The notes: generated by a model not told the origin, from the sequence alone. Shown: positions 1 to 19,999, numbered from the stretch's first letter. The stretch: DNA of 20,000 nucleotides from an uncultured virus (IMG/VR IMGVR_UViG_3300042509_001296) (IMGVR_UViG_3300042509_001296); one strand, 5' to 3'. A program made the numbers and translations.

Positions 1-900
1 TATCCAAAGAGTTCCCGTCCAGACAAACCCATCGCCCGGAAGTGAGCCAGCGGGAAACCCAGACGGGAGCGGATCATCGGCAATCCACAGGTCGCCCACA
101 GCGGGCGTTGTGGCTGGCGGCCACTTGGTAGCCTCACCCATGATCTTGGCGGCAGCACCCGTATCACCCTTTTGGCCAGCAGGCCCAGACGGACCCGTGT
201 CGCCCTTGATGCCTTGGATGCCTTGGCTACCGGCTGGCCCGGTTAGTCCAGTTGGGCCCTGCGAACCTTGCGGGCCCTGAGTACCAGCGTCCCCCTTAAG
301 GCCTTTTTCTCCCGGGATTCCTTGAGCCCCAGCAGGACCTTGGGTCCCCTGCGGACCTTGAGCCCCGGTATCGCCCTTGTTCCCTTGGACTCCTTGGGGG
401 CCAGTTTCCCCCTTAGGAATCGAGAGATTCAGCACAAAGTTGGGTGCAGTTCCCGTGATCGTGGCCGCCGCCGTGGCTCCTGCCTGAACAGCCCCTATAG
501 ATAGAGAGCATGGATCGCCCTTATCCCCCCTCGGCAGGGTTAGGTTCAGGGACTGAGTTGGGGCAGTTCCCGATAGGCTGGCAAACGCCGTTGGCCCAGT
601 GATGACCGAGCCGATGGTCAGCGTGTTCGAGGCCCCGGCAGGACCGGCTGGACCAGCATCCCCCTTAGGACCAGCGGGGCCCGAGGGGCCAGAAGGGCCG
701 GATGGGCCGGATGGGCCATTTGCACCCGGTGGGCCGACTTCCGCCTTATAGGGCAGTGCCTTCCAAGCCAAAGCCCCGTCACCGATCTTCCACTTCCCGG
801 TATCTACTTCGACCCCCGGCTCCCCGGCAGACAAAACAGGATTGACCTTCTGCCATTCAGCAGCGGTATCTCGTCGAAGTTGGATTCTCTGTGCTGCCAT
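1..900 (-). CDS. Collagen-like tail fibre protein with Mtd_N/hyaluronidase-N-like N-terminal domain (3'-truncated by window edge)
   Basis: Not in the ORF track; translated by hand. ATG at 900, open to base 1. MAAQRIQLRRDTAAEWQKVNPVLSAGEPGVEVDTGKWKIGDG..WKALPY, then long G-X-Y runs, two GTAP..LNL.(L/I)P.G repeats, and a WPP..P.VGDLWIADDP..PGDGFVWTGTLW module. Confidence 0.88.
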   Translation of the reverse strand, partial: MAAQRIQLRRDTAAEWQKVNPVLSAGEPGVEVDTGKWKIGDGALAWKALPYKAEVGPPGANGPSGPSGPSGPSGPAGPKGDAGPAGPAGASNTLTIGSVITGPTAFASLSGTAPTQSLNLTLPRGDKGDPCSLSIGAVQAGATAAATITGTAPNFVLNLSIPKGETGPQGVQGNKGDTGAQGPQGTQGPAGAQGIPGEKGLKGDAGTQGPQGSQGPTGLTGPAGSQGIQGIKGDTGPSGPAGQKGDTGAAAKIMGEATKWPPATTPAVGDLWIADDPLPSGFPAGSLPGDGFVWTGTLWI

Positions 901-1034: not shown

Positions 1035-1235
1035 TTACTTGTGCTTTACGCCAGCGATCTTGTCCTTCGCAAACTGGATCACCTCTGGCGTCCAGTGTTG
1101 GGCAGCCATGTCCTTGACCGCCTGCGGTGCGTCATCGGGCAGCGGGCGAGCGGGCGAGTAGGTGCAGGCCCACAGGGTTCCGTTGCGGTTCTCGATGTAA
1201 CTGATGACGCCGTGCTTTCCGATCGTCGTTCGCAT
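1035..1235 (-). CDS. Small tail-fibre-associated protein (possible assembly chaperone)
   Basis: 66 aa, 1-nt overlap with the upstream fibre gene. C-terminal VKDMAAQHWTPEVI resembles small proteins commonly found after phage fibre genes. Confidence 0.6.
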   Translation of the reverse strand: MRTTIGKHGVISYIENRNGTLWACTYSPARPLPDDAPQAVKDMAAQHWTPEVIQFAKDKIAGVKHK

Positions 1236-1762
1236 CAGAGGCTCCCCCGCAGCGGCGGATCGTCGGTCAAATATGTAAAGGAGACAGAGAAGCCGCTTCC
1301 GGGTTCTTCACCGTCCGTAATCACCATCACGGGGTCTTCTGTGACAGCGTATGCGAGACTCCCGATGATCTTGCCTTCGGACGAGATCACCACTCCGGCG
1401 TAAGGATTCCGCGAGGGTTGAACACTGGTCATGGTTTCCTTTATTGAAAACGGAAGCCCAAGCAGGGTGCTGTCGGGTCGCACGTCTGCGGCTTCAGCGG
1501 CTGAAACGCCGATGAACAGGGTGACGAGTTGACCACTGCGAACCCAGTATCCTGCGCACGACGTGTCGATGGTCGCGTCATTACCGGGCGCAAGAAACTG
1601 CGGCTGCCACTCGCCGCTGAACTGCGTTTCGCCCTCGACTTTCAAGAAGCCATCGCTGCCCAACGTGAGAGCGTTCCCCGCGTCAGCACTGACCGTAGAC
1701 GGGCCGGGCGGCCCCTTGAGGGACTGCCACCCGGCTCCGTCGTAAATCTTCGCGTCTTTCAA
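1235..1762 (-). CDS. Short tail fibre / receptor-binding tip protein
   Basis: Start reassigned to TTG 1762 (GAGGAG 7 nt upstream). N-terminal KIYDGAGW, GPPGP, VSADAGNALTLGSDG, then a GEWQP..GYWVRSGQLVTL..GLPF fibre C-terminal domain. Confidence 0.75.
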   Translation of the reverse strand: MKDAKIYDGAGWQSLKGPPGPSTVSADAGNALTLGSDGFLKVEGETQFSGEWQPQFLAPGNDATIDTSCAGYWVRSGQLVTLFIGVSAAEAADVRPDSTLLGLPFSIKETMTSVQPSRNPYAGVVISSEGKIIGSLAYAVTEDPVMVITDGEEPGSGFSVSFTYLTDDPPLRGSL

Positions 1763-1766
1763 TGGA

Positions 1767-2609
1767 TTACTCCTCAATCCAAAAGTCACCGATTGCTGCC
1801 GTAGCGGGCTGGGTCGGGCCCTTGGTCACGTTCACAGACCGACCATCGGCACCGGCCGGTCCATCCGCACCCGGGTCACCCTTATCGCCCTTCTCGCCCG
1901 GTGCGGCAGCGGCACCGTCTTCGCCCTTTTCACCCTTAGCCGCCAGCAGTTTCAGGTCATCAACCGGGCTGGTGATGATGCCGCGACTCGATTGGTTCAC
2001 GACGATAAAGGTCTGGCCAAACAGAGTCACAACGTCGTTGTTTTCGTATGACTCGTTCAGGTCGAACTCACCCCGGAAGGTAAGGCCAACCCCGTCCGCA
2101 CCCGCCACACCGTCAGTGCCCTTCGTAGCAAGGGTTGCCCACGCCGTCGTGTCGGTGATGTCCTCGTCGCCGTCCCCAGCGATCATGATGTAGGTGGTGC
2201 CCTGATAGGTCACTACATCGTTGACGTCATAGGCACTTCCATCCCACTCACCCTTGAAGGTAAAGCCAACGCCATCAGCACCCGGCGGGCCGTCTTGGCC
2301 CGGAGCACCATCAGCACCATTGGCACCGTCCTTGCCAGCAGGGCCACGAATGCCACCGACGTTGTTCCACTCCGTGCCCGTCCAGACGAGTCCGTCGCCG
2401 GGGTTGGTGCCAGCCGGGAAGCCAGCAGGAACCGGGTCGGCCACGATCCACATATCACCAACGTCAGGGGTGGCGGCCGGTGGGTAGACAGTGGCAGTGC
2501 CCTTGATGTCTACGCCCGAGCCATCCTTGCCGTCCACGCCGTCTTTGCCAGCGGGACCAACGATGGAGACCCATGCACTGCCGTCGAAAATGGATACGTC
2601 TTTGGCCAT
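1767..2609 (-). CDS. Collagen-like fibre protein with two CBM5/12-like repeats
   Basis: G-X-Y segments; FKGEWDGSAYDVNDVVTYQGTTY and FRGEFDLNESYENNDVVTLFGQTF repeats; GDMW..PGDGLVWTGTEW module. Confidence 0.85.
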   Translation of the reverse strand: MAKDVSIFDGSAWVSIVGPAGKDGVDGKDGSGVDIKGTATVYPPAATPDVGDMWIVADPVPAGFPAGTNPGDGLVWTGTEWNNVGGIRGPAGKDGANGADGAPGQDGPPGADGVGFTFKGEWDGSAYDVNDVVTYQGTTYIMIAGDGDEDITDTTAWATLATKGTDGVAGADGVGLTFRGEFDLNESYENNDVVTLFGQTFIVVNQSSRGIITSPVDDLKLLAAKGEKGEDGAAAAPGEKGDKGDPGADGPAGADGRSVNVTKGPTQPATAAIGDFWIEE

Positions 2610-2620
2610 TGCTCTTTCCC

Positions 2621-2815
2621 TTAGTTGTTGTTAATCCACACGGTTCCCGGCTTCGCACTTGCTGGCTGGGTGTTCTGCACTAGCACTTCCACTGACTCAC
2701 CGTCATCGCCCTTGTCACCTTTGTCGCCCTTGGGTCCGGGTGTGCCGCCTCCACCAACTCCAGTGATGGGGAGCCACTTACCCGCGACGGTGTCGAAGTA
2801 ATAGAGTTGAGCCAT
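2621..2815 (-). CDS. Mini collagen-like fibre/linker protein (64 aa)
   Basis: MAQLYYFDTVAGKWLPI, GPKGDKGDKGDDG, C-terminal QPASAKPGTVWI. Fits tightly between its neighbours. Confidence 0.8.
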   Translation of the reverse strand: MAQLYYFDTVAGKWLPITGVGGGGTPGPKGDKGDKGDDGESVEVLVQNTQPASAKPGTVWINNN

Positions 2816-2816
2816 G

Positions 2817-4499
2817 TCAGTAGGCCGCCTTCCAGCGGATGCCCGAGAAGTTTGCCTCGTTCGACCTCGCCCCGGGGCTACATGAGATGTCGCGGTTCTT
2901 GCTGCTCACTGAGCAGAATCCGTAGGTCACGGCAGAGCCGACGAGCCTCATCGCCAGCGGGTAACTCGCGTCCACTTCGGCAACAGGGAACTGCGGAGGA
3001 AGCCGCAGGGGAACCCACGCACCGCTGCCAGCACCGAATGACAGAGTCCCCTTGAGTTCGATGAACCCGCCGATCATCCTCGCCTGAATCTCGGTAGAAA
3101 CAGACTCCTTCGCCCCATCCATGCGCACCATCCATGTCCAATCAATGTCGGCGGGAGGAGGCTTCGTGCCACCGACGAGCATCAACTTCACCTCGTCAAG
3201 GACGGACTTCTTGAACTCAACAAGGGCAGGGTCGTTGATCGTTGGCGAGCCAAGCGGACTGATCGCGGTCAGTTTGTCATCGACCTGCTTGCGCGAGTAC
3301 AGCATCAAGGCCATCTGGTTGTCGAAGTCGGCCTTGCTGAAGGCGTCGGTGATCCGCATGAAGCGGTCATCGGTCTGCTTCTGCGTGTATACGTCAGCCT
3401 TAAGGGGGTAACGGAAGTCCGCTTCAGTCCGCGTGTAGATCGAGTCAAAGATCGTCTGGACTTGATTGCGGAGAAGATCGAGGGCTTCAACCCTGCCGTA
3501 CCGGGTGTCGGCGGTTGCGAGCGTGACGTATGGGGCGAGGTCAATGGCCGGAGCCGCCTTGCTCTCAAGGGCCTCCATCCTTGGCAGCAGGGCGTTCAGG
3601 GAGTCAAGGTCGGACTTGTAGACAAGGAACTCGTTCTCAAGCCCAATGTTCAAAACAAGACGATTCCCATAACCCTCGCCCGTGTCGGAGTAGCCGAGAG
3701 CGACAGGTGGCAGTAACGTGTCGCCAAAACCGTAAGCCTGCGACACGACGGTCTTGGCAAGGAACGGCTGCTGGTTGTCCTGCTTGCGGGCGTAACGGTC
3801 ATCGGACTCGACGCGGGTGTAGATCGAGTCGAACACCGCCTGCAACTGCGTGGTGATGAGCGTCGTGGTCGAGAGCGGGGCGAACTTGCCGTCTACTTCC
3901 AACTTTGTATAGGTGTCAGCCTTGTCAGACTTGAGGTCGATCCTCTCCTGCAACTGCCGTGCAGTCTCGGTGACGGCGAACAGGACTTGGTTCTGCACGG
4001 CATCGAGGTCGAGGGCACCTTCGTCCCGACACACCTTGATAGCGGCATCAGTCTCAGGCTTGGTGTAGTAGCCCGACAGGTCAACCGTTCCACCTCCGGC
4101 TGGGGAGAAGATGTCCACCATCTGCGGGTTGCTGAACGGCTTATCCAGTTCGTCACTGGTCAACTTCATCCACTTGCCGTCAGGGTCACAGGAGACGAGG
4201 GTGGACGGATTCTGAGGGGTCGGCTGGTTGGTGCTGCTCTTGACGATCTTGGCGATAGAGCGGTTCGGCCCCTGCACCACGACCGTGGTTTGGAACTCCT
4301 GCCTCACGATGGAGACAAGGGTGGCGGCATCCTTGTAGAAGTGCAGTCCATCAGCAACGTCCTTCCAGCACTCCTCAAGGGCAGCGGGGGTAGGGACAGT
4401 CGGTGTCGGGATCGGGCCGTCTTGAACAGTGACGGGAGAGCCGCCAGAGCCACCAACCTCAACCCATTGGCCGTTGCTATAGATGTTGAGAGTCTTCAT
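2817..4499 (-). CDS. Tail fibre-like protein with YT(K/R)xExD repeats and C-terminal putative receptor-binding domain
   Basis: 560 aa. Repeats include YYTKPETD, TYTKLEVD, IYTRVESD, IYTRTEAD, VYTQKQTD, LYSRKQVD. C-terminal W..ARMIGGFIELKG..LPPQFP domain. Confidence 0.8.
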   Translation of the reverse strand: MKTLNIYSNGQWVEVGGSGGSPVTVQDGPIPTPTVPTPAALEECWKDVADGLHFYKDAATLVSIVRQEFQTTVVVQGPNRSIAKIVKSSTNQPTPQNPSTLVSCDPDGKWMKLTSDELDKPFSNPQMVDIFSPAGGGTVDLSGYYTKPETDAAIKVCRDEGALDLDAVQNQVLFAVTETARQLQERIDLKSDKADTYTKLEVDGKFAPLSTTTLITTQLQAVFDSIYTRVESDDRYARKQDNQQPFLAKTVVSQAYGFGDTLLPPVALGYSDTGEGYGNRLVLNIGLENEFLVYKSDLDSLNALLPRMEALESKAAPAIDLAPYVTLATADTRYGRVEALDLLRNQVQTIFDSIYTRTEADFRYPLKADVYTQKQTDDRFMRITDAFSKADFDNQMALMLYSRKQVDDKLTAISPLGSPTINDPALVEFKKSVLDEVKLMLVGGTKPPPADIDWTWMVRMDGAKESVSTEIQARMIGGFIELKGTLSFGAGSGAWVPLRLPPQFPVAEVDASYPLAMRLVGSAVTYGFCSVSSKNRDISCSPGARSNEANFSGIRWKAAY

Positions 4500-4501
4500 G
4501 T

Positions 4502-5140
4502 TCAGTAGGCGTAGGCCATGGCTCCCGTGAATGTGACTCCGGTGATCTTGCCGTCTCCAACGACCCCGATGGCCCCGTCCGCGTTGAATCGGATGAACAC
4601 TCGGCGGTAGGTCACGCCCTGCTCAATGCCGAAACCGACCACAACCTGATCCTGCGGCGGCTTCGGGAAGTTGGCCGGGAGACGCTGGACCGTCGAGAAG
4701 GTGCCGAGGCTGGTAGTGGTGTAGGTGAGTTCTCCACGCAGTTGGATCATGCCGTTAAGGACTCGGGCCTCGATCAGGCCTGATCCAGCGACCTTCACGC
4801 ATGGTGTCCAAGGAAGGTCTTCGGGGACAGCCTTGCCACCCGCCATCAGCGAGCGAACAAGTTGGGCCACATGGGCGTCGAGTTCTTTGGTGTCGGCATC
4901 GGCAATCAATGCCGAAATCGCTGCCGCCTTTGCCGCAGGGGTGGAGAGCCACAGGTCGCCGTCTTTCCCTGAGTCAGGCTTGGCCTCCTGCTCGTAGACC
5001 GTCCCGCCTGAAGACAAGTTGGCAATGGCCCCATCTACTTCCGACTTGGTGTAGTAGTTGGCCTCAAGGTAGGCAATGTCGGCGTTGGCATCGAGGTCCG
5101 TCGAGCCGTACTGCTCGTTGCGTGTTTCGGTGTCGCTCAT
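4502..5140 (-). CDS. Short tail fibre-like protein, C-terminally paralogous to 2817..4499
   Basis: YYTKSEVD, KPDSGKDGDLWL, and PW..ARVLNGMIQLRG..LPANFP. Confidence 0.8.
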   Translation of the reverse strand: MSDTETRNEQYGSTDLDANADIAYLEANYYTKSEVDGAIANLSSGGTVYEQEAKPDSGKDGDLWLSTPAAKAAAISALIADADTKELDAHVAQLVRSLMAGGKAVPEDLPWTPCVKVAGSGLIEARVLNGMIQLRGELTYTTTSLGTFSTVQRLPANFPKPPQDQVVVGFGIEQGVTYRRVFIRFNADGAIGVVGDGKITGVTFTGAMAYAY

Positions 5141-6171
5141 TCAGTCACCTCTTCTTCGCTGCCATCTCGGACGGTGGTCGTGGTGAACGTCGGGAAGGCC
5201 ATGCCATCAAGATGGATAACAAGCGGAGCCCTAAGCAGCGGGATGGCAACAAGCGGGTTTTGGGCACTGCCGCCATCAACTCGCATATGGCATATGCCGG
5301 GTCCGGTTGAAGAGGTAGTGGTCGCCGTGCCGTAGACCGTGACGTTCCCAAAAAGGTCTGGGAAGCCGTTGCTGACCGGGAATGACCCCACTTCTGCGGC
5401 TGTGTCGATGGCGAACACAGTCGAATCCTTCTTTTGAATGCTGCCCCGCAACTCAATGGTCTGGCCGTCATAGAGGATTCTGTATTGGGGAGTCTTCCCG
5501 GCCGACGTAAGGGCGGTGGGGAGGTTGAGGGGCTGCCACTGAGGTTTCAGGTCAGTGTCATAAACAATCGTGTTGTTTGTGCTTAACCCGCCTACGGAGG
5601 TGTTCACAACAAGGCGGCCATTGACAGCCTGAGTGAGTTTGAGAGTGCGTGTTACCTGTACCTGTACCACCCCGTTGAGCCCCGTTGTCGAAGACCCCGA
5701 GAACAGAGTGAAGGCGTTGGCACTGATGTCCTGAAAGTCAAACAGGTCGGCCTTTGCGTTGAGCAGGCTGTCAATCTCTGTCTTGGAGTAGAGATCACCC
5801 GTCAGCAGGACTTGCCTTGAAGCACTCCCGGTAACGTCATAAACAAGCCGATTGCCCGTTGCGCTCATCGACAAGAAGGCGTCGATGGTGGGACTGACCT
5901 TCCACTTCACCCGCCTTAGGGTTATGTCTTGGGTTGTGCTTGTGAGGTCTGCCTTGAGTGCCAGTTCAGTGGTAGCGTCAACGTCCTTAACAAGGGCATC
6001 AACCTGCGTCTTGGTGTAGTAGTTGGTCAGGTCTACGCTTCCGCCACCGACCGTGATGCTTGAGATCAAGGCATCGACTTCGAGGTCCGTGTACACGCCC
6101 ACAATCCCCTTTGGTGCGGAGATTGACGAGGTGAAGGTGTTTACGGGTGTCGGCCTAACGGGAGCGGGCAT
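5137..6171 (-). CDS. Tail fibre-like protein
   Basis: VDLTNYYTKTQVD and LYSKTEIDSLLNAKAD repeats; C-terminal WQPLNL..PQYRI..IELRG domain; 4-nt overlap with the next gene. Confidence 0.78.
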   Translation of the reverse strand: MPAPVRPTPVNTFTSSISAPKGIVGVYTDLEVDALISSITVGGGSVDLTNYYTKTQVDALVKDVDATTELALKADLTSTTQDITLRRVKWKVSPTIDAFLSMSATGNRLVYDVTGSASRQVLLTGDLYSKTEIDSLLNAKADLFDFQDISANAFTLFSGSSTTGLNGVVQVQVTRTLKLTQAVNGRLVVNTSVGGLSTNNTIVYDTDLKPQWQPLNLPTALTSAGKTPQYRILYDGQTIELRGSIQKKDSTVFAIDTAAEVGSFPVSNGFPDLFGNVTVYGTATTTSSTGPGICHMRVDGGSAQNPLVAIPLLRAPLVIHLDGMAFPTFTTTTVRDGSEEEVTE

Positions 6172-6174
6172 GGG

Positions 6175-7605
6175 TCATACCTCAATAAGTGGCAGCAGAT
6201 ATTTGGTTCCGTTCACCACAACGGGGACTCCCCCGACCATGTAGGGTTGGGTGATGAACATTCCAGTTGGGTCTTCGCCAATGAAAGTCCCGTCCAACTG
6301 CTGCGTTGTTATGGAGTCTTCAAAGACAAACAGGGGCGAAGCAGTGGCGGATGGAGGTGCGGGGATTAACGGCAGGAGGTACTTCTTGCCGTTGACGAGT
6401 ACGGGCACACCACCAACCATCAAGGGCTGGTGAATCTCCAAGCCGTCTGCGGACAGACCAATGGGAAGTCCGTTCGGCTGCTGGGTAATCGCGGTGCTTA
6501 AGTAAGCCGGAGGGTTGGTGTTGCTGAACGGTAGGTTCGGGTCTGGCGGGGCAGTCCCAGTGGGGTCAATCCAGATCGCACCACCACCGGCGGGAGCGGG
6601 CGGCTCGGTGTCAGACACCAATACGGGTTCAGCGAAGTACCAGCCCGTCGCAGGGTCTTGGTCTGCCCGGAGATAGCCTTCTTCTGTGGGCGTCGGGAGA
6701 ACGTAGCCTTCGCCAGCAGCACGACCGGGCTGATTGCCGTACTGGAGGTTGCCAAAGTACCCGTAGTCGGCCAGCACCCAGCCGTCGCCGCCAATGGGGT
6801 CGGATGCACCGCCACCGCCGGAGAGGTCTTGCAGGCGAACGCGAGTGAACGTGACAGGCGTGTCTTTGAATGCCGCCTTAAGCGACATCTCCTCCGACCA
6901 CTGCTGGAGCGGGAGGTTGGACGAGGCAGTGACGCCAGTGACCGGGCCAGTGGCACTGGTGTCTACCGTGACATCGCCAGCGGTTCCGCCAGAGGCAGCC
7001 ACCACCCACTGAATGCCATCCCAAATGCTTAAGACGGTTCCATCAGGGGTAGGCTTGAGCCACATATCCCCGACGTTCTTTGCCGTAGGGGTCGTGGTTC
7101 CGCTGAACACAGACACCGCAGTGCCGTCAGCACCGGCTGGGCCTTCTGGTCCTTGGATAGGTCCAGTGGCTACCCACTTAGTGCCGGTCCACGAAAAGCC
7201 ATCGCCGGGGGATGAGCCAGCGGGAGCAGTGGCCGGAATGGGGTCATCAAGAACCCAGAGGTCACCGATCTCCGGGGTTCCCGGGGGCGGCCAGACATCG
7301 GCAACACCCTTGATCTGAATGCCTTTACCGGGGGCACCAGCAGGGCCAGCAGGGCCCGGAGTGCCAGCGGGGCCACGGGCCATGAGGTAGGGCAGTTCCG
7401 ACCAGCGAGTGCTGCCGGTGCCGATCTTTACCTTGCCGGTGGGATAGCCAATCTCATAGCCAAACTCGCCCGCCTCTAGGACGGGGTCGTTCTTGAGCCA
7501 TCCATCAGGGGTGTCCCTACGGACAATGACCCTCTGGCCCAACTGCTCGTATGAGTCGGCCTTGTTTTTTAGGCCTTCTCGGTGACTAGGTGGAACAAGC
7601 GACAT
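6175..7605 (-). CDS. Collagen-like tail fibre protein with Mtd_N-like domain
   Basis: RRDTPDGWLKNDPVLEAGEFGYE..KVKIGTGSTRWSELPY, G-X-Y run, GDLW/GDMW modules, duplicated C-terminal domain. Confidence 0.85.
   Translation of the reverse strand: MSLVPPSHREGLKNKADSYEQLGQRVIVRRDTPDGWLKNDPVLEAGEFGYEIGYPTGKVKIGTGSTRWSELPYLMARGPAGTPGPAGPAGAPGKGIQIKGVADVWPPPGTPEIGDLWVLDDPIPATAPAGSSPGDGFSWTGTKWVATGPIQGPEGPAGADGTAVSVFSGTTTPTAKNVGDMWLKPTPDGTVLSIWDGIQWVVAASGGTAGDVTVDTSATGPVTGVTASSNLPLQQWSEEMSLKAAFKDTPVTFTRVRLQDLSGGGGASDPIGGDGWVLADYGYFGNLQYGNQPGRAAGEGYVLPTPTEEGYLRADQDPATGWYFAEPVLVSDTEPPAPAGGGAIWIDPTGTAPPDPNLPFSNTNPPAYLSTAITQQPNGLPIGLSADGLEIHQPLMVGGVPVLVNGKKYLLPLIPAPPSATASPLFVFEDSITTQQLDGTFIGEDPTGMFITQPYMVGGVPVVVNGTKYLLPLIEV
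6178..6490 (-). repeat. Tandem duplicated ~43-aa C-terminal unit
   Basis: ITQQPNGLPIGLSADGLEIHQPLMVGGVPVLVNGKKYLLPLI vs TTQQLDGTFIGEDPTGMFITQPYMVGGVPVVVNGTKYLLPLI. Confidence 0.85.
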
Positions 7606-7623: not shown

Positions 7624-8172
7624 TTATGTCTTGGGTCGCTTCCACTGAGGCACATGCTTTTCCTTCACCTTGGAAATGGCGTCCTTCATGGACAGTGAAG
7701 GGTTTTTGGCGATTTCCTTCTTGGCCAACTCCTTGGCAATCTTGGGATTCAGGTCAACCGTAACGGGCGGGGTGTCGTGGGCATCTACGTTGATGATCCC
7801 CCTGACCTGAAGGTTCCGCTTTTTGGCTACCCGGCGAACATCCGACAAATCTGACACCCATGCTTCTGGGTCACAGTGGCCCCGCTTGTCCGACAGTCCG
7901 CTCATGTACTGCTTGCCGGTGATGTCTATCCCTGCCGCCTTAGCCTCACGGACTACCCGTTTGGCCATATGGATTGGCATATCGTCTATCCAGTTGCCAT
8001 CCAGCCTGCCCTGCTGGAATGCCCGGTCAGTGCCTGAAGTTCCGGGCGGCTGCTGAAGGGCACACATCTCCGCGAATCTAGGGTTCTGCCCGTCAGCCAC
8101 CATCTTCAGGTAGTGGTGTTGGACATGGGGGGCGGCGTTCGCAATGTCGAAAGGCATGGCTTCGGTAATCAT
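7624..8172 (-). CDS. Hypothetical phage protein
   Basis: 182-aa ORF with strong SD (AGGAGG) and ATGA overlap with the nuclease gene; basic C-terminus. Confidence 0.8.
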   Translation of the reverse strand: MITEAMPFDIANAAPHVQHHYLKMVADGQNPRFAEMCALQQPPGTSGTDRAFQQGRLDGNWIDDMPIHMAKRVVREAKAAGIDITGKQYMSGLSDKRGHCDPEAWVSDLSDVRRVAKKRNLQVRGIINVDAHDTPPVTVDLNPKIAKELAKKEIAKNPSLSMKDAISKVKEKHVPQWKRPKT

Positions 8173-8555
8173 CTGGTCCTCCTTTTAGTTCTGAGGCCCG
8201 CCACCCCACCGTCGCCATTCGGAGCCCCGATAGCCGCCGGAGGAGAGCGGCGTCGGGAATGGGCGGCAGGGGGCGGGCTGCACAGGTAGTCGATAGCCCT
8301 GTGAAGAAGTTCTGGGTTGTCTTTGAAGTTCCCTAGGCCTTTGTTACAGCACTGGCACAGAAGGCCCCTTATGGCCCCCGTTTGGTGGCAGTGGTCTACG
8401 CAGGCGGCATTCGACTTGTTGCATATTTTGCATTTGCCACACTGCTCCTCCGTCATCCGGCGGTACTGCTCTTCGGTCATGCGATAGCGGAGCCGGAGGT
8501 TTGCATACCTCTTGGTGGCCCTCTGCCTTTCGAGCATGGCGTTAAGCACAATCAC
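8169..8555 (-). CDS. Endonuclease VII-family (His-Me finger) endonuclease
   Basis: CKIC..VDHCHQTGAIRGLLCQCCNKGLG.FKDN signature of the recombination endonuclease VII family. GTG start overlaps the portal stop. Confidence 0.9.
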   Translation of the reverse strand: MIVLNAMLERQRATKRYANLRLRYRMTEEQYRRMTEEQCGKCKICNKSNAACVDHCHQTGAIRGLLCQCCNKGLGNFKDNPELLHRAIDYLCSPPPAAHSRRRSPPAAIGAPNGDGGVAGLRTKRRTR

Positions 8556-15166: not shown

Positions 15167-15619
15167 TTACTCAAACACTTGCGTCCAATAGATAGACCGA
15201 CCGTTATCGACCGACCCAACACCTATCTGCGTGTATCGGGAGTTCAGGATGTTCCTTCGATGTCCGGGCGAGTTCATCCAAGCAGTCATTACTTCTTGGG
15301 GCGTCCTTTGCCCATAGGCCACGTTTTCGCCATGGCCCATCTTGGAGTGGAACATCCTGCCTCTACTGGCTTGGACACCACTCCATGCTCTAGCGTCACT
15401 CATCAGGGCTGGCACTACATCTAACGGACGAAGGCCCCTAGAGGTTCGCTGGAGGTTGGTAAGTCGGATCACCTCTCTCTCGTAAGGGCTTAAGGGGTAC
15501 TTGGTTGACCGCTTGGCTGGTGTTGGTGTCGGTGGTGGCTCGGGAGGCTTGGGCTGACCTATCAGCATCAGGCCTGCGGCGAGCAGGAGGAGGGCGGCAA
15601 CTACGCGGAGCCTGCTCAT
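15167..15619 (-). CDS. CAP (SCP/PR-1, YkwD-like) domain protein with N-terminal signal/anchor
   Basis: EVIRLTNLQR..GLRPL..MFHS..GENVAYGQ.TPQEVMTAWMNSPGHRRNIL..YTQIGVG..YWTQVF, a canonical bacterial CAP domain. Confidence 0.93.
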   Translation of the reverse strand: MSRLRVVAALLLLAAGLMLIGQPKPPEPPPTPTPAKRSTKYPLSPYEREVIRLTNLQRTSRGLRPLDVVPALMSDARAWSGVQASRGRMFHSKMGHGENVAYGQRTPQEVMTAWMNSPGHRRNILNSRYTQIGVGSVDNGRSIYWTQVFE

Positions 15620-18781: not shown

Positions 18782-19999
18782 CTATCTGGCAATGGGCATT
18801 CGCGGCATCATTCGGCCATAGGGTGTGCCTGATGCTTGTGGTACTGCACCCGGGATAGTCTTGAGAACACTGGGGGCATCACTTAACGCCTTAACCCTCT
18901 TGGCGTCTTCTTCTTTCTTCCACTTCAGGAACTGATCTTGGCTTTGGTCGGGCAGTTCGTCTCGCACCCCCGGCGTGAACATCTCGCTGAAGTTCACTCG
19001 CTTCTGCTGGTTCTTTGGGAGTAGGGATTGCTGGTGTTCGTTGTAGGCAGTCATTCCGCCCATGATCCCGGCGGCCATGGGAATCTCTTCGAGGCCCTCT
19101 CGAATAAGGCTCCTGCCGATAGCCGACAACCCGCCCTTTGCCGCTCCGGCAGCCCCGGCGAGGAGGGTGGGGTCAATGAGGTTCTGCAAAAACTCGTGAA
19201 CTGAACTACCGGCGTATGACGGGTACTCCCCGTACTTCTCCCGGTAGTAGGCGTCGTAGGAGGTGGCGTTCGTCTTGTACCGGGGGTCAGCGTCGTCCTT
19301 CATCCCTTGGAGTTGGGCGTACTTTTCTTCCTTTTCCGCAGGGGTCTTAGGGTCTCCCGGGAGTATGGGGGATACCTTGTTGGCTGCGTTCTTGATGTCC
19401 CGGTAGGTGGCTGGGTCATTGACTAAGGACTGATACGCCCCACCCCGATCTTTGCCGGTTCCTTGGTGAGCCCAGCACGAATAGGCGTTGTAGCCCGGAT
19501 CGAGCAGGTTGTTCATAAGCCAGCCCGCCGTGTACTCGGGGTTCTGCAATGCCCCGGCCCAGCCGCTCTCCCCGTACTCCCGGCCTTCTTTGGCGTCCCG
19601 GTTGCTGGCGTTGTCGTGCTGGAGCGTGTCAATCCGGCCCTGAGCCCACTGAGGGTACTGTGCCCTCATGCCCTCTAGTTGCTGATGCCGGTCAATGAAC
19701 TCCCGGTTGGCCCGCCACTGGTCAGCCTGCTGGTCGCCTTCGCTCATGAGCATGGGCGGCAAGGGGCCGTTCTTGGCTTCATAAGCCTTCAGTTCGTCGT
19801 TCGACCAGCCCCGGCCCTTGAACTCGCTGAGTTGCCTATTGCGGGAGTCCTTGAAGAGGGGCTCAAGATCAGCCGCTTTGGTGTCCGGGTCACCAGATAT
19901 GAGCAACTGCCTGAAGTCATCCCATGGGTTTGCGTCTACGTCATTGGTCATGGCGTAGGGAGCATCGAACACCATGCCCAAGGCATAGTCTTTAGGGTT
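18782..19999 (-). CDS. Hypothetical protein, possibly internal virion/ejection protein (5'-truncated)
   Basis: Frame stays open to the window edge beyond 19981. Gly/Ala-rich hydrophobic segments (LLAGAAGAAKGGLSAIG, MAAGIMGGM). Confidence 0.65.
   Translation of the reverse strand, partial: NPKDYALGMVFDAPYAMTNDVDANPWDDFRQLLISGDPDTKAADLEPLFKDSRNRQLSEFKGRGWSNDELKAYEAKNGPLPPMLMSEGDQQADQWRANREFIDRHQQLEGMRAQYPQWAQGRIDTLQHDNASNRDAKEGREYGESGWAGALQNPEYTAGWLMNNLLDPGYNAYSCWAHQGTGKDRGGAYQSLVNDPATYRDIKNAANKVSPILPGDPKTPAEKEEKYAQLQGMKDDADPRYKTNATSYDAYYREKYGEYPSYAGSSVHEFLQNLIDPTLLAGAAGAAKGGLSAIGRSLIREGLEEIPMAAGIMGGMTAYNEHQQSLLPKNQQKRVNFSEMFTPGVRDELPDQSQDQFLKWKKEEDAKRVKALSDAPSVLKTIPGAVPQASGTPYGRMMPRMPIAR
18790..18802 (-). 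promoter_or_regulatory. Repeated box CGAATGCCCATTG overlapping putative -35 of the scaffold/capsid operon
   Basis: 12/13 match to the other two boxes. On the minus strand TTGCCA-16 nt-CAAACT follows; ~57 nt upstream of the scaffold ATG. Confidence 0.5.

Follow-up and report, generated by a model that had tools for sequence, protein, structure and literature searches.

A candidate split-module joint between tail-fibre proteins of an uncultured 65.6-kb phage

Described fibre joints and the present fibre cluster

The branched receptor-binding system of Klebsiella phages is the closest known counterpart of the fibre genes considered here, and the long tail fibre of phage T4 is also close. In the podophages KP32, K11, and KP34, the first receptor-binding protein has a T4 gp10-like branching domain that receives a conserved 29-residue N-terminal docking peptide of the second; this peptide can carry foreign distal domains, and the protein layers are stackable (PMC13352976). 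Branched receptor-binding systems are described for K1-5, G7C, and CBA120 as well (PMC13352976; PMC6872550). The present genes occupy a 20,000-nucleotide (nt) stretch of the uncultured virus IMGVR_UViG_3300042509_001296 from IMG/VR; the whole of this stretch, referred to below as the window, carries the tail-fibre genes of a 65.6-kb phage, with every gene on its minus strand. Several of the encoded fibre proteins contain a four-strand module in whole copies, and several begin or end with one half of it. A first half (strands 1 and 2) located at a C-terminus, or internally without a second half, is termed a socket, and a second half (strands 3 and 4) located at an N-terminus is termed a plug. 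Each fibre of this phage probably consists of a number of trimeric proteins that are translated separately and joined non-covalently through the nicked four-strand module. The proteins in question, named by their length in amino acids (aa), are encoded as follows, in the order of transcription.

6175..7605, minus strand: 476-aa root fibre protein with a hyaluronidase/Mtd-like N-terminal domain, short collagen, a long-form module, a short module, a lone first half, and two C-terminal repeat copies
5137..6171, minus strand: 344-aa fibre protein that has a distal domain of its own and a conserved N-terminus, the latter coming after the conserved C-terminal repeat of the 476-aa protein
4502..5140, minus strand: 212-aa fibre protein with an internal lone first half, a helical stretch, and a distal knob
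2817..4499, minus strand: 560-aa fibre protein with an N-terminal plug and a C-terminal distal knob
2621..2815, minus strand: 64-aa connector consisting of a plug, six collagen triplets, and a socket
1767..2609, minus strand: 280-aa middle fibre protein with a plug, collagen, a long-form module, two CBM5/12-like units, collagen, and a socket
1235..1762, minus strand: 175-aa distal fibre protein (TTG start) with a plug, a short Gly-Pro stretch, and a knob
1..900, minus strand: N-terminal 300 residues of a 1013-aa fibre protein (cut by the window edge, full length on the contig), with Mtd_N, collagen, and a long-form module

As in the KP32 type of system, the first ~40 residues are kept here ahead of unrelated distal domains, and N-termini are conserved in alignments A2, A3, and A5. 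The receiver is a T4 gp10-like domain in the Klebsiella phages; the fibre proteins of the window have no Pfam or PHROG match to such a domain (the fold search covered residues 95–210 of the 476-aa protein). Differences are that plug and socket are halves of one module that is also whole in the same proteins, that the sockets are often at the extreme C-terminus, that the shafts are collagen-like, and that one protein is a bare 64-aa connector. Judged from sequence, a split joint of this kind would extend known fibre docking to docking elements that are halves of one module.

The long tail fibre of T4 is a serial assembly of gp34, gp35, gp36, and gp37 (PMC5537660). It is likewise made end to end from the products of side-by-side genes, of which the distal one binds the receptor, although for the present phage the joining is read from the genes. 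The T4 fibre is one unbranched chain, whereas the two free sockets observed here suggest two arms, and no sequence relation to the T4 long tail fibre was found. We know of no report that the joints of the T4 fibre are halves of a module that is whole elsewhere.

In chaperone-usher pili, an incomplete beta fold is completed by the N-terminal extension of the next subunit, which gives a non-covalent chain ordered by pair specificity; each pilin lacks one strand of an immunoglobulin-like fold, and a chaperone and an usher are needed. The principle is similar to that proposed here by analogy only, and no membership is claimed. The fibre joint differs in that the missing part would be a two-strand hairpin and the fold to be completed a four-strand module of trimeric phage fibres; a Pfam scan of the window found no pilin, chaperone, or usher family. 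Nothing relevant on a split-module fibre arrangement, strand complementation, or donor strands in tail fibres was found among the matches listed in searches of open-access text. Tentatively, the locus can be read as encoding a portable split-domain connector, in which nicking the module in its central turn would have created plugs and sockets that form a cognate code, the trimers would be wired as a branched tree in gene order, and the 64-aa protein would act as a spacer, making the joint a phage-fibre counterpart of pilus donor-strand complementation.

The four-strand module and its terminal halves

In the whole module, which is ~40 residues long, a Pro-rich loop separates strand 1 from strand 2 (GDxW), and a turn leads from strand 2 to strand 3 (hydrophobic-x-hydrophobic-aromatic, then D/N-G), which is followed by strand 4 (W-x-x-hydrophobic). 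Whole modules interrupt collagen-like or coiled-coil shafts, and the long form has an insert of ~17 residues in the turn. Four whole copies are found in the window.

6991..7116, minus strand: whole short module, 476-aa protein residues 164–205; first half 27.6 bits, second half 10.0 bits
7159..7314, minus strand: whole long-form module, 476-aa protein residues 98–149; first half 8.6 bits, with a partner second half
2355–2507, minus strand: whole long-form module, 280-aa protein residues 35–85; first and second half
1–144, minus strand: whole long-form module in the 1013-aa protein; first half 10.9 bits, with a partner

The short copy in the 476-aa protein is the reference copy of a preliminary description of this DNA, and it lies where that description had placed an intact module. 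Its residues 166–202 match an unnamed tandem fibre repeat, which has a GDxW half and an aromatic/D/N-G/Trp half 8–14 residues apart, and with the two scores listed above it is itself a member. Alignment A1, consisting of this module and its counterparts in two relatives, was turned into a three-copy profile and searched against 1.84 billion proteins; it recovered 792 representative proteins at E ≤ 0.001, of which 165 reach 1e-10 or lower, and a single protein holds as many as 19 copies. The module-bearing proteins are long and fibre-like, and the unit alternates in them with coiled-coil or collagen-like stretches. The module is a real, widespread unit. Common as it is, no Pfam family covers it in the five repeat-member proteins scanned, in which only spurious summed matches occur. 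The long form is similar in pattern to DUF2793 (PF10983), with scores far below the cut-off of 27 bits (11.4 bits, E 0.31, and 7.5 bits, E 5, for the long-form copies). No solved structure in PDB matches the module by sequence, the only matches being to the N-terminal hyaluronidase-like domain and to collagen.

Prediction of the 476-aa protein as a monomer gave a model of low overall quality (mean predicted local distance difference test score, pLDDT, 43.1), which was used for the strand pattern of its two modules only. Both have four modelled strands with pLDDT of about 58–72, located at residues 166–168, 181–186, 189–195, and 200–205 in the short module and at residues 98–102, 116–119, 135–139, and 144–149 in the long-form module (pLDDT 59–72). 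Given this modelled pattern, the gene boundaries considered below would lie in the turn that connects strand 2 to strand 3. Three candidates for the fold of the module were too weak to be accepted, namely 7chu_A (against model residues 95–151; Z 5.2, root-mean-square deviation (rmsd) 2.1 over 50 residues), the JBD30 baseplate chain 8rk3_a (Z 4.1, rmsd 2.3 over 47 residues), and the collagen XV/XVIII trimerisation domains (Z 3.3–3.4).

The half-copies of the window were scored with half-profiles cut from an alignment of 553 whole units taken from the 150 best unrelated proteins, which avoids circularity.

2624–2692, minus strand: C-terminal socket, 64-aa protein residues 42–64; 13.9 bits; the protein ends 2–3 residues past the conserved Trp
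1770–1835, minus strand: C-terminal socket, 280-aa protein residues 259–280; 17.4 bits
4943..4999, minus strand: internal socket candidate, 212-aa protein residues 48–66; 6.8 bits with the unrelated profile, 19.0 bits family-tuned
6562..6624, minus strand: internal socket candidate, 476-aa protein residues 328–348; 2.7 bits even when family-tuned
4449–4499, minus strand: plug, 560-aa protein residues 1–17; 5.9 bits (homologues 8.4, 5.2, and 4.4 bits)
2759–2815, minus strand: plug, 64-aa protein residues 1–19; undetected by the profile (two-residue insert), aligned homologues 15 bits
2556–2609, minus strand: plug, 280-aa protein residues 1–18; 9.8–13.5 bits
1715–1762, minus strand: plug, 175-aa protein residues 1–16; 6.2 bits

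The preliminary description had listed the same sockets (in the 64-, 280-, 212-, and 476-aa proteins) and plugs (in the 560-, 64-, 280-, and 175-aa proteins), all of which are present on the minus strand. Its locations stand, with the corrections that the start at 1762 is TTG and not ATG, that three long-form copies had been overlooked, and that profile support for the halves is uneven. Proteins with a C-terminal socket stop 0–6 residues past strand 2. The terminal copies do not hold both halves in one chain, as a whole unit does, and are half units. The plug of the 64-aa protein was called by motif and by alignment A5, not by profile. At the position aligned to the internal socket of the 476-aa protein, the relatives P0073, P0084, and P0114 score 9–20 bits, and W345 and P348 are invariant in alignment A4. 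A socket-ending gene is directly followed by a plug-starting gene at 2621/2609 and at 1767/1762, the two junctions for which this succession had been claimed.

In the whole 65.6-kb phage (94 open reading frames on the coding strand), every half-profile match of at least 5 bits is located within these fibre genes. Reversed sequences gave 1 first-half match at ≥6 bits versus 35 in the real ones, and 5 second-half matches versus 33. Since all phage-wide matches fall in the fibre genes and reversed sequences give few, the pattern of halves exceeds chance.

The preliminary description had suggested looking for a positional bias of the halves across phage genomes, and such a bias is found. Relatives were sampled through the upstream 182-aa non-fibre gene, which yielded 80 loci; 49 of these have at least 3 kb downstream and, together with the contig of the window, form a set of 50. 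Matches of at least 6 bits were counted in the first 40 residues for N-termini and the last 25 residues for C-termini, with the upstream genes as controls. Second halves are present at 21/268 distinct N-termini of the fibre zone (controls, 0/319), and first halves at 9/259 C-termini (controls, 0/287). At the wrong ends, by comparison, neither first halves at N-termini (0/268; controls, 2/319) nor second halves at C-termini (0/259; controls, 0/287) occur in the fibre zone. The halves thus have strict terminal polarity. Chance likeness of short, low-complexity termini to a common motif is an explanation to which the lengths of the halves (~12–20 residues) and the scores of some of them (3–6 bits only) lend a little colour, but it is scarcely credible in view of the empty controls, the empty wrong ends of the fibre zone, and the small yield from reversed sequences, and we regard it as effectively excluded.

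The halves also co-occur in related genomes. An N-terminal second half is accompanied by a partnerless first half in 9 of the 50 loci, whereas 40 loci have neither, 1 has a socket only, and none has a plug only; the contig of the socket-only locus (L078) ends 3.7 kb downstream. With polarity strict and no plug found without a socket, terminal plugs and sockets do occur together in relatives, contrary to the outcome that would have spoken against the preliminary proposal. The nine positive loci belong to three diverged clades, whose orthologues are 21–57% identical (alignments A2 and A3), and a socket-ending gene followed by a plug-starting gene is found in all three. Plug and socket proteins, including another 65-aa connector, occur in further lineages represented by the metagenome loci L155, L156, and L157.

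The unnamed tandem repeat behaves differently from this family, in that the 150 best unrelated repeat proteins contain the module whole 828 times and have a first half as the protein end only once. On this basis, the split is special to the phage group and a few other lineages (L155–L157). The single terminal case, P0117 (1290 aa), is outside the family and ends 4 residues past a first half. Another protein, P0057, begins with a second half and is possibly a truncated gene call.

Separate translation and the proposed joining of the fibre proteins

The distinct junctions between socket-ending and plug-starting genes have stop-to-start gaps of 2, 4, 11, 12, 60, 62, 88, 580, and 738 nt, with frame offsets of 0, 1, and 2. 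The plug genes start at an ATG, GTG, or TTG of their own, with a Shine-Dalgarno-like sequence in front; the TTG start of the 175-aa gene at 1762 is located 7 nt behind a GAGGAG that is formed by the last codons of the upstream gene. Given the varied gaps, all three frame offsets, and the separate starts, the pieces are separately translated, and no single recoding event fits. Among the 109 database matches to the C-terminal part of the 280-aa protein, 32 end 0–6 residues past the first half, and 28 of these 32 also start with a plug, while the remaining 77 matches are collagen-only. None of the 109 matches (154–490 aa) continues into a second half, and no fused form was seen there or in four longer homologues of the 175-aa protein. 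The boundaries might otherwise be ascribed to assembly frameshift or nonsense errors, to pseudogenes, or to programmed recoding into one long fibre protein, as adjacent genes in the window are 1–11 nt apart in different frames and the contig comes from a metagenome bin. The same boundaries, however, reappear in other, independent assemblies and in 28 or more database clusters, which, along with the separate starts, the variable gaps and offsets, and the missing fused form, makes any of these origins very improbable and in effect excludes them.

Of 13 distinct junction pairs, 12 have a spacing across the nick of 9–12 residues, counted by hand from the socket Trp to the plug aromatic, and that of L079 has 15. 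Hand counts of the same distance within whole modules gave 12–14 residues for three short modules and 11 for the repeat consensus. As far as the sequences go, the spacing matches what is expected for a nick in the central turn. The 64-aa connector, which is made of a plug, six collagen triplets, and a socket and has no other part, is represented by 16 further database clusters of 62–69 aa with both ends invariant at key positions. Its monomer model (mean pLDDT 79.5, predicted template modelling score 0.55) has strands at residues 3–8, 13–16, 44–46, and 59–62, with confident ends (pLDDT blocks of 88 and 82, and of 88, 87, and 86) and a loose middle; a fold search with this model gave a best Z of 2.1, too weak to name a fold. 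The four longer homologues of the 175-aa protein (317–382 aa) share only its first ~40 residues, at 74–81% identity over 23–24% of the query, and continue into unrelated distal domains. The plug-bearing N-terminus accordingly behaves as a conserved mounting piece on which tips are swapped.

A structure prediction of trimer pairs, which the preliminary description had put forward as a check, was carried out with three copies of the 175-aa protein and three copies of residues 241–280 of the 280-aa protein, using the nine-row alignments A3 and A2. The interaction prediction score from aligned errors (ipSAE) was 0.60 (0.58, 0.60, and 0.61 in separate runs), against 0.35, 0.00, and 0.00 for controls; the pLDDT of the partner was 76–77, and the contacts agree fully between runs. 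The mark set for complex models was reached by 116/157 solved complexes and 2/215 mismatched pairs, and at ≤0.60 it was reached by 18 of the 157 solved complexes and by both of these mismatched pairs; the present model departs from this calibration in its custom alignments and its 3 + 3 copies. It lends weak support to docking of plug and socket. The preliminary description had proposed that separately translated fibres dock by strand complementation. This is supported in part: separate translation, the identity of the halves, their polarity and co-occurrence, and the swapping of tips are established, whereas the physical docking itself receives weak support (ipSAE 0.60 versus 0.35). Because the complex model is of this strength, we infer the binding of plug to socket, together with the assignment of pairs and the branching, the last two from gene order and from counts of the ends.

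According to the proposed scheme, the plug of one protein, providing strands 3 and 4, would re-form the module with the socket of another, providing strands 1 and 2. The 476-aa root and the 212-aa protein would have one free socket each, one of which would receive the 560-aa protein, while the other would receive a chain running from the 64-aa through the 280-aa to the 175-aa protein. The outcome would be a branched fibre with several different distal knobs, whose tips would be exchangeable by recombination at the conserved plug. By a motif-level reading, plugs and free sockets are equal in number in the window (4/4), in L114 (4/4), in L082 and L085 (5/5 each), and in L079 (3/3). Each complete cluster comprises two plug-only distal proteins, and its root proteins offer two free sockets.

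Several observations weigh against joining through paired halves. The nine positive loci represent only three clades and therefore amount to about three independent observations, so that the 2 × 2 table of co-occurrence overstates independence. The balance of plugs and sockets depends on weak motif-level calls and is given little weight; by profile alone, the respective numbers are 2/4 in the window, 2/3 in L114, 4/5 in L082, 4/5 in L085, and 3/3 in L079, and they are unbalanced because several ends are below the threshold. Two of the eight half-copies of the window are weak, namely the internal socket of the 476-aa protein at 2.7 bits and the profile-undetected plug of the 64-aa protein. Internal first halves may be complete units that need no partner, and the 150 unrelated repeat proteins contain 78 first halves (≥8 bits) without a recognizable second half, mostly through divergence. 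Furthermore, no solved structure strongly resembles the module (best Z 5.2, and 2.1 for the 64-aa model), the 476-aa model is poor, and two-ended proteins could in principle self-polymerise.

The main alternative is one that we consider unlikely, though deserving of attention: the ends could be relics of fission or recombination rather than partners, long fibre genes having been cut within a conserved module at which recombination is favoured, with the N-terminal piece serving as an adaptor to the tail, a baseplate protein, or a chaperone and the first half capping a shaft. A conserved N-terminus with exchangeable distal domains would suit any N-terminal adaptor, the abundance of partnerless internal first halves in unrelated proteins is in keeping with relics, and the complex model is weak. 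Relics do not account as readily for strict polarity, for sockets and plugs sharing the same nine loci with no plug-only locus, for direct socket-plug adjacency in three clades with a conserved nick spacing, or for a 64-aa protein that is nothing more than two ends and short collagen. In addition, the fibre pieces must still join in some way to reach the virion, and a virion-attachment-type N-terminal domain is found only on the 476-aa and 1013-aa proteins.

Pairing of the halves, which we think probable, could nonetheless be unordered, with promiscuous ends through which the 64-aa and 280-aa proteins polymerise or mix into fibres of variable length and composition. All plugs and sockets indeed fit one pair of half-profiles, and in L118 an insert separates the socket and plug genes by 738 nt, so that adjacency is dispensable. 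Yet socket tails and plug heads differ by position and appear to be kept within orthologous positions across clades, as cognate specificity predicts, and we judge the unordered form to be rather improbable.

Such pairing, if real, would make the fibre architecture of this uncultured, widespread ~60-kb phage group readable from gene ends, including the order of the proteins, the number of arms, and the tips, and the plug would be a defined handle of ~16–40 residues for exchanging receptor-binding tips. The engineering principle would be that of the docking peptide of Klebsiella phages, applied to a different and much smaller joint. The cluster would also provide a natural module acting in cis and in trans, suited to the study of fission tolerance in trimeric fibres. 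Should the portable-connector reading hold, fibre architecture could be deduced from sequence by a simple rule, which would also guide the mounting of new receptor-binding tips.

Genome setting and further observations on the fibre gene row

The window is the reverse strand of positions 19295–39294 of a 97.7-kb contig. A 65,577-bp unit is present 1.49-fold in this contig as a concatemer, and its copies are identical across 31 kb except for the first 1 kb, which contains 604 of the 606 mismatches. Its G+C content is 57.6%, versus 44.3% for the whole metagenome bin. Considering the concatemer and the deviating G+C content, the contig is a phage genome within the bin and not a host chromosome, and the phage was probably mis-binned or is unrelated to the organism of the bin. 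GenBank phages include no cultured relative; no relative of the 476-aa protein was found among them, and their sole portal match, in a Microcystis phage, is 24.5% identical; IMG/VR, in turn, contains more than 120 related contigs. In the genome collection, the sole relative of the portal (69% identity) is on L149, a contig of a marine Porticoccaceae metagenome-assembled genome, which gives no firm clue to the host.

The order of transcription is head genes, terminase, P22-like portal, endonuclease VII, the 182-aa protein, and a tight row of fibre genes for proteins of 476, 344, 212, 560, 64, 280, 175, and 66 aa, followed by the start of the 1013-aa gene. The endonuclease VII gene (83.6 bits, window 8169–8555) is located between the portal and the fibre genes, and a CAP/SCP-domain protein (60.2 bits, window 15167–15619) is encoded among the head genes. 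Pfam Mtd_N (PF18454), the N-terminal domain of phage hyaluronidase and Mtd fibres, matches the 1013-aa protein with 54.5 bits, above the cut-off of 26.3 bits; the 476-aa protein scores 22 bits, below that cut-off, and its N-terminus matches the N-terminus of PDB 6x3m (E 8e-6). The 280-aa and 1013-aa proteins match Pfam Collagen (PF01391) with 34.2 and 67 bits (cut-off 27.2 bits), and the 280-aa protein also has a CBM_5_12 match.

The 66-aa protein (window 1035–1235) is encoded directly after the 175-aa protein, has no Pfam or PHROG match, and is conserved at the corresponding position in L070; a helper role in fibre assembly is conceivable. One clade has a small hydrophobic protein of 58–71 aa whose gene lies partway along the fibre row, flanked by two plug-bearing genes (L082, 13118–13333; L084, 11997–12173; L004, 8083–8259).

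Relatives have a single protein of 363–404 aa in place of the 344-aa and 212-aa proteins, which combines the N-terminus of the former with the socket and knob of the latter. The window has an extra distal domain and a new gene boundary (an ATGA overlap, 5137–5140) between the two parts. A second conserved junction is formed by the end repeat of the 476-aa protein (…LLPLI plus two residues; window 6178–6204) and the MPAP… start of the 344-aa protein (6133–6171). Both stretches run uninterrupted inside the 476-aa protein, between its two C-terminal repeat copies (window ~6322–6384), and the pair is also present in the relatives L001, L002, L067, L069, and L070; the junction of the 476-aa and 344-aa proteins may be another split joint. 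In L090–L094, which are relatives without the split module, another type of fibre junction recurs, at which a 244-aa protein ending in a conserved …TLYVIT motif is directly followed by a protein of 800–900 aa (L090, ~3144–3878).

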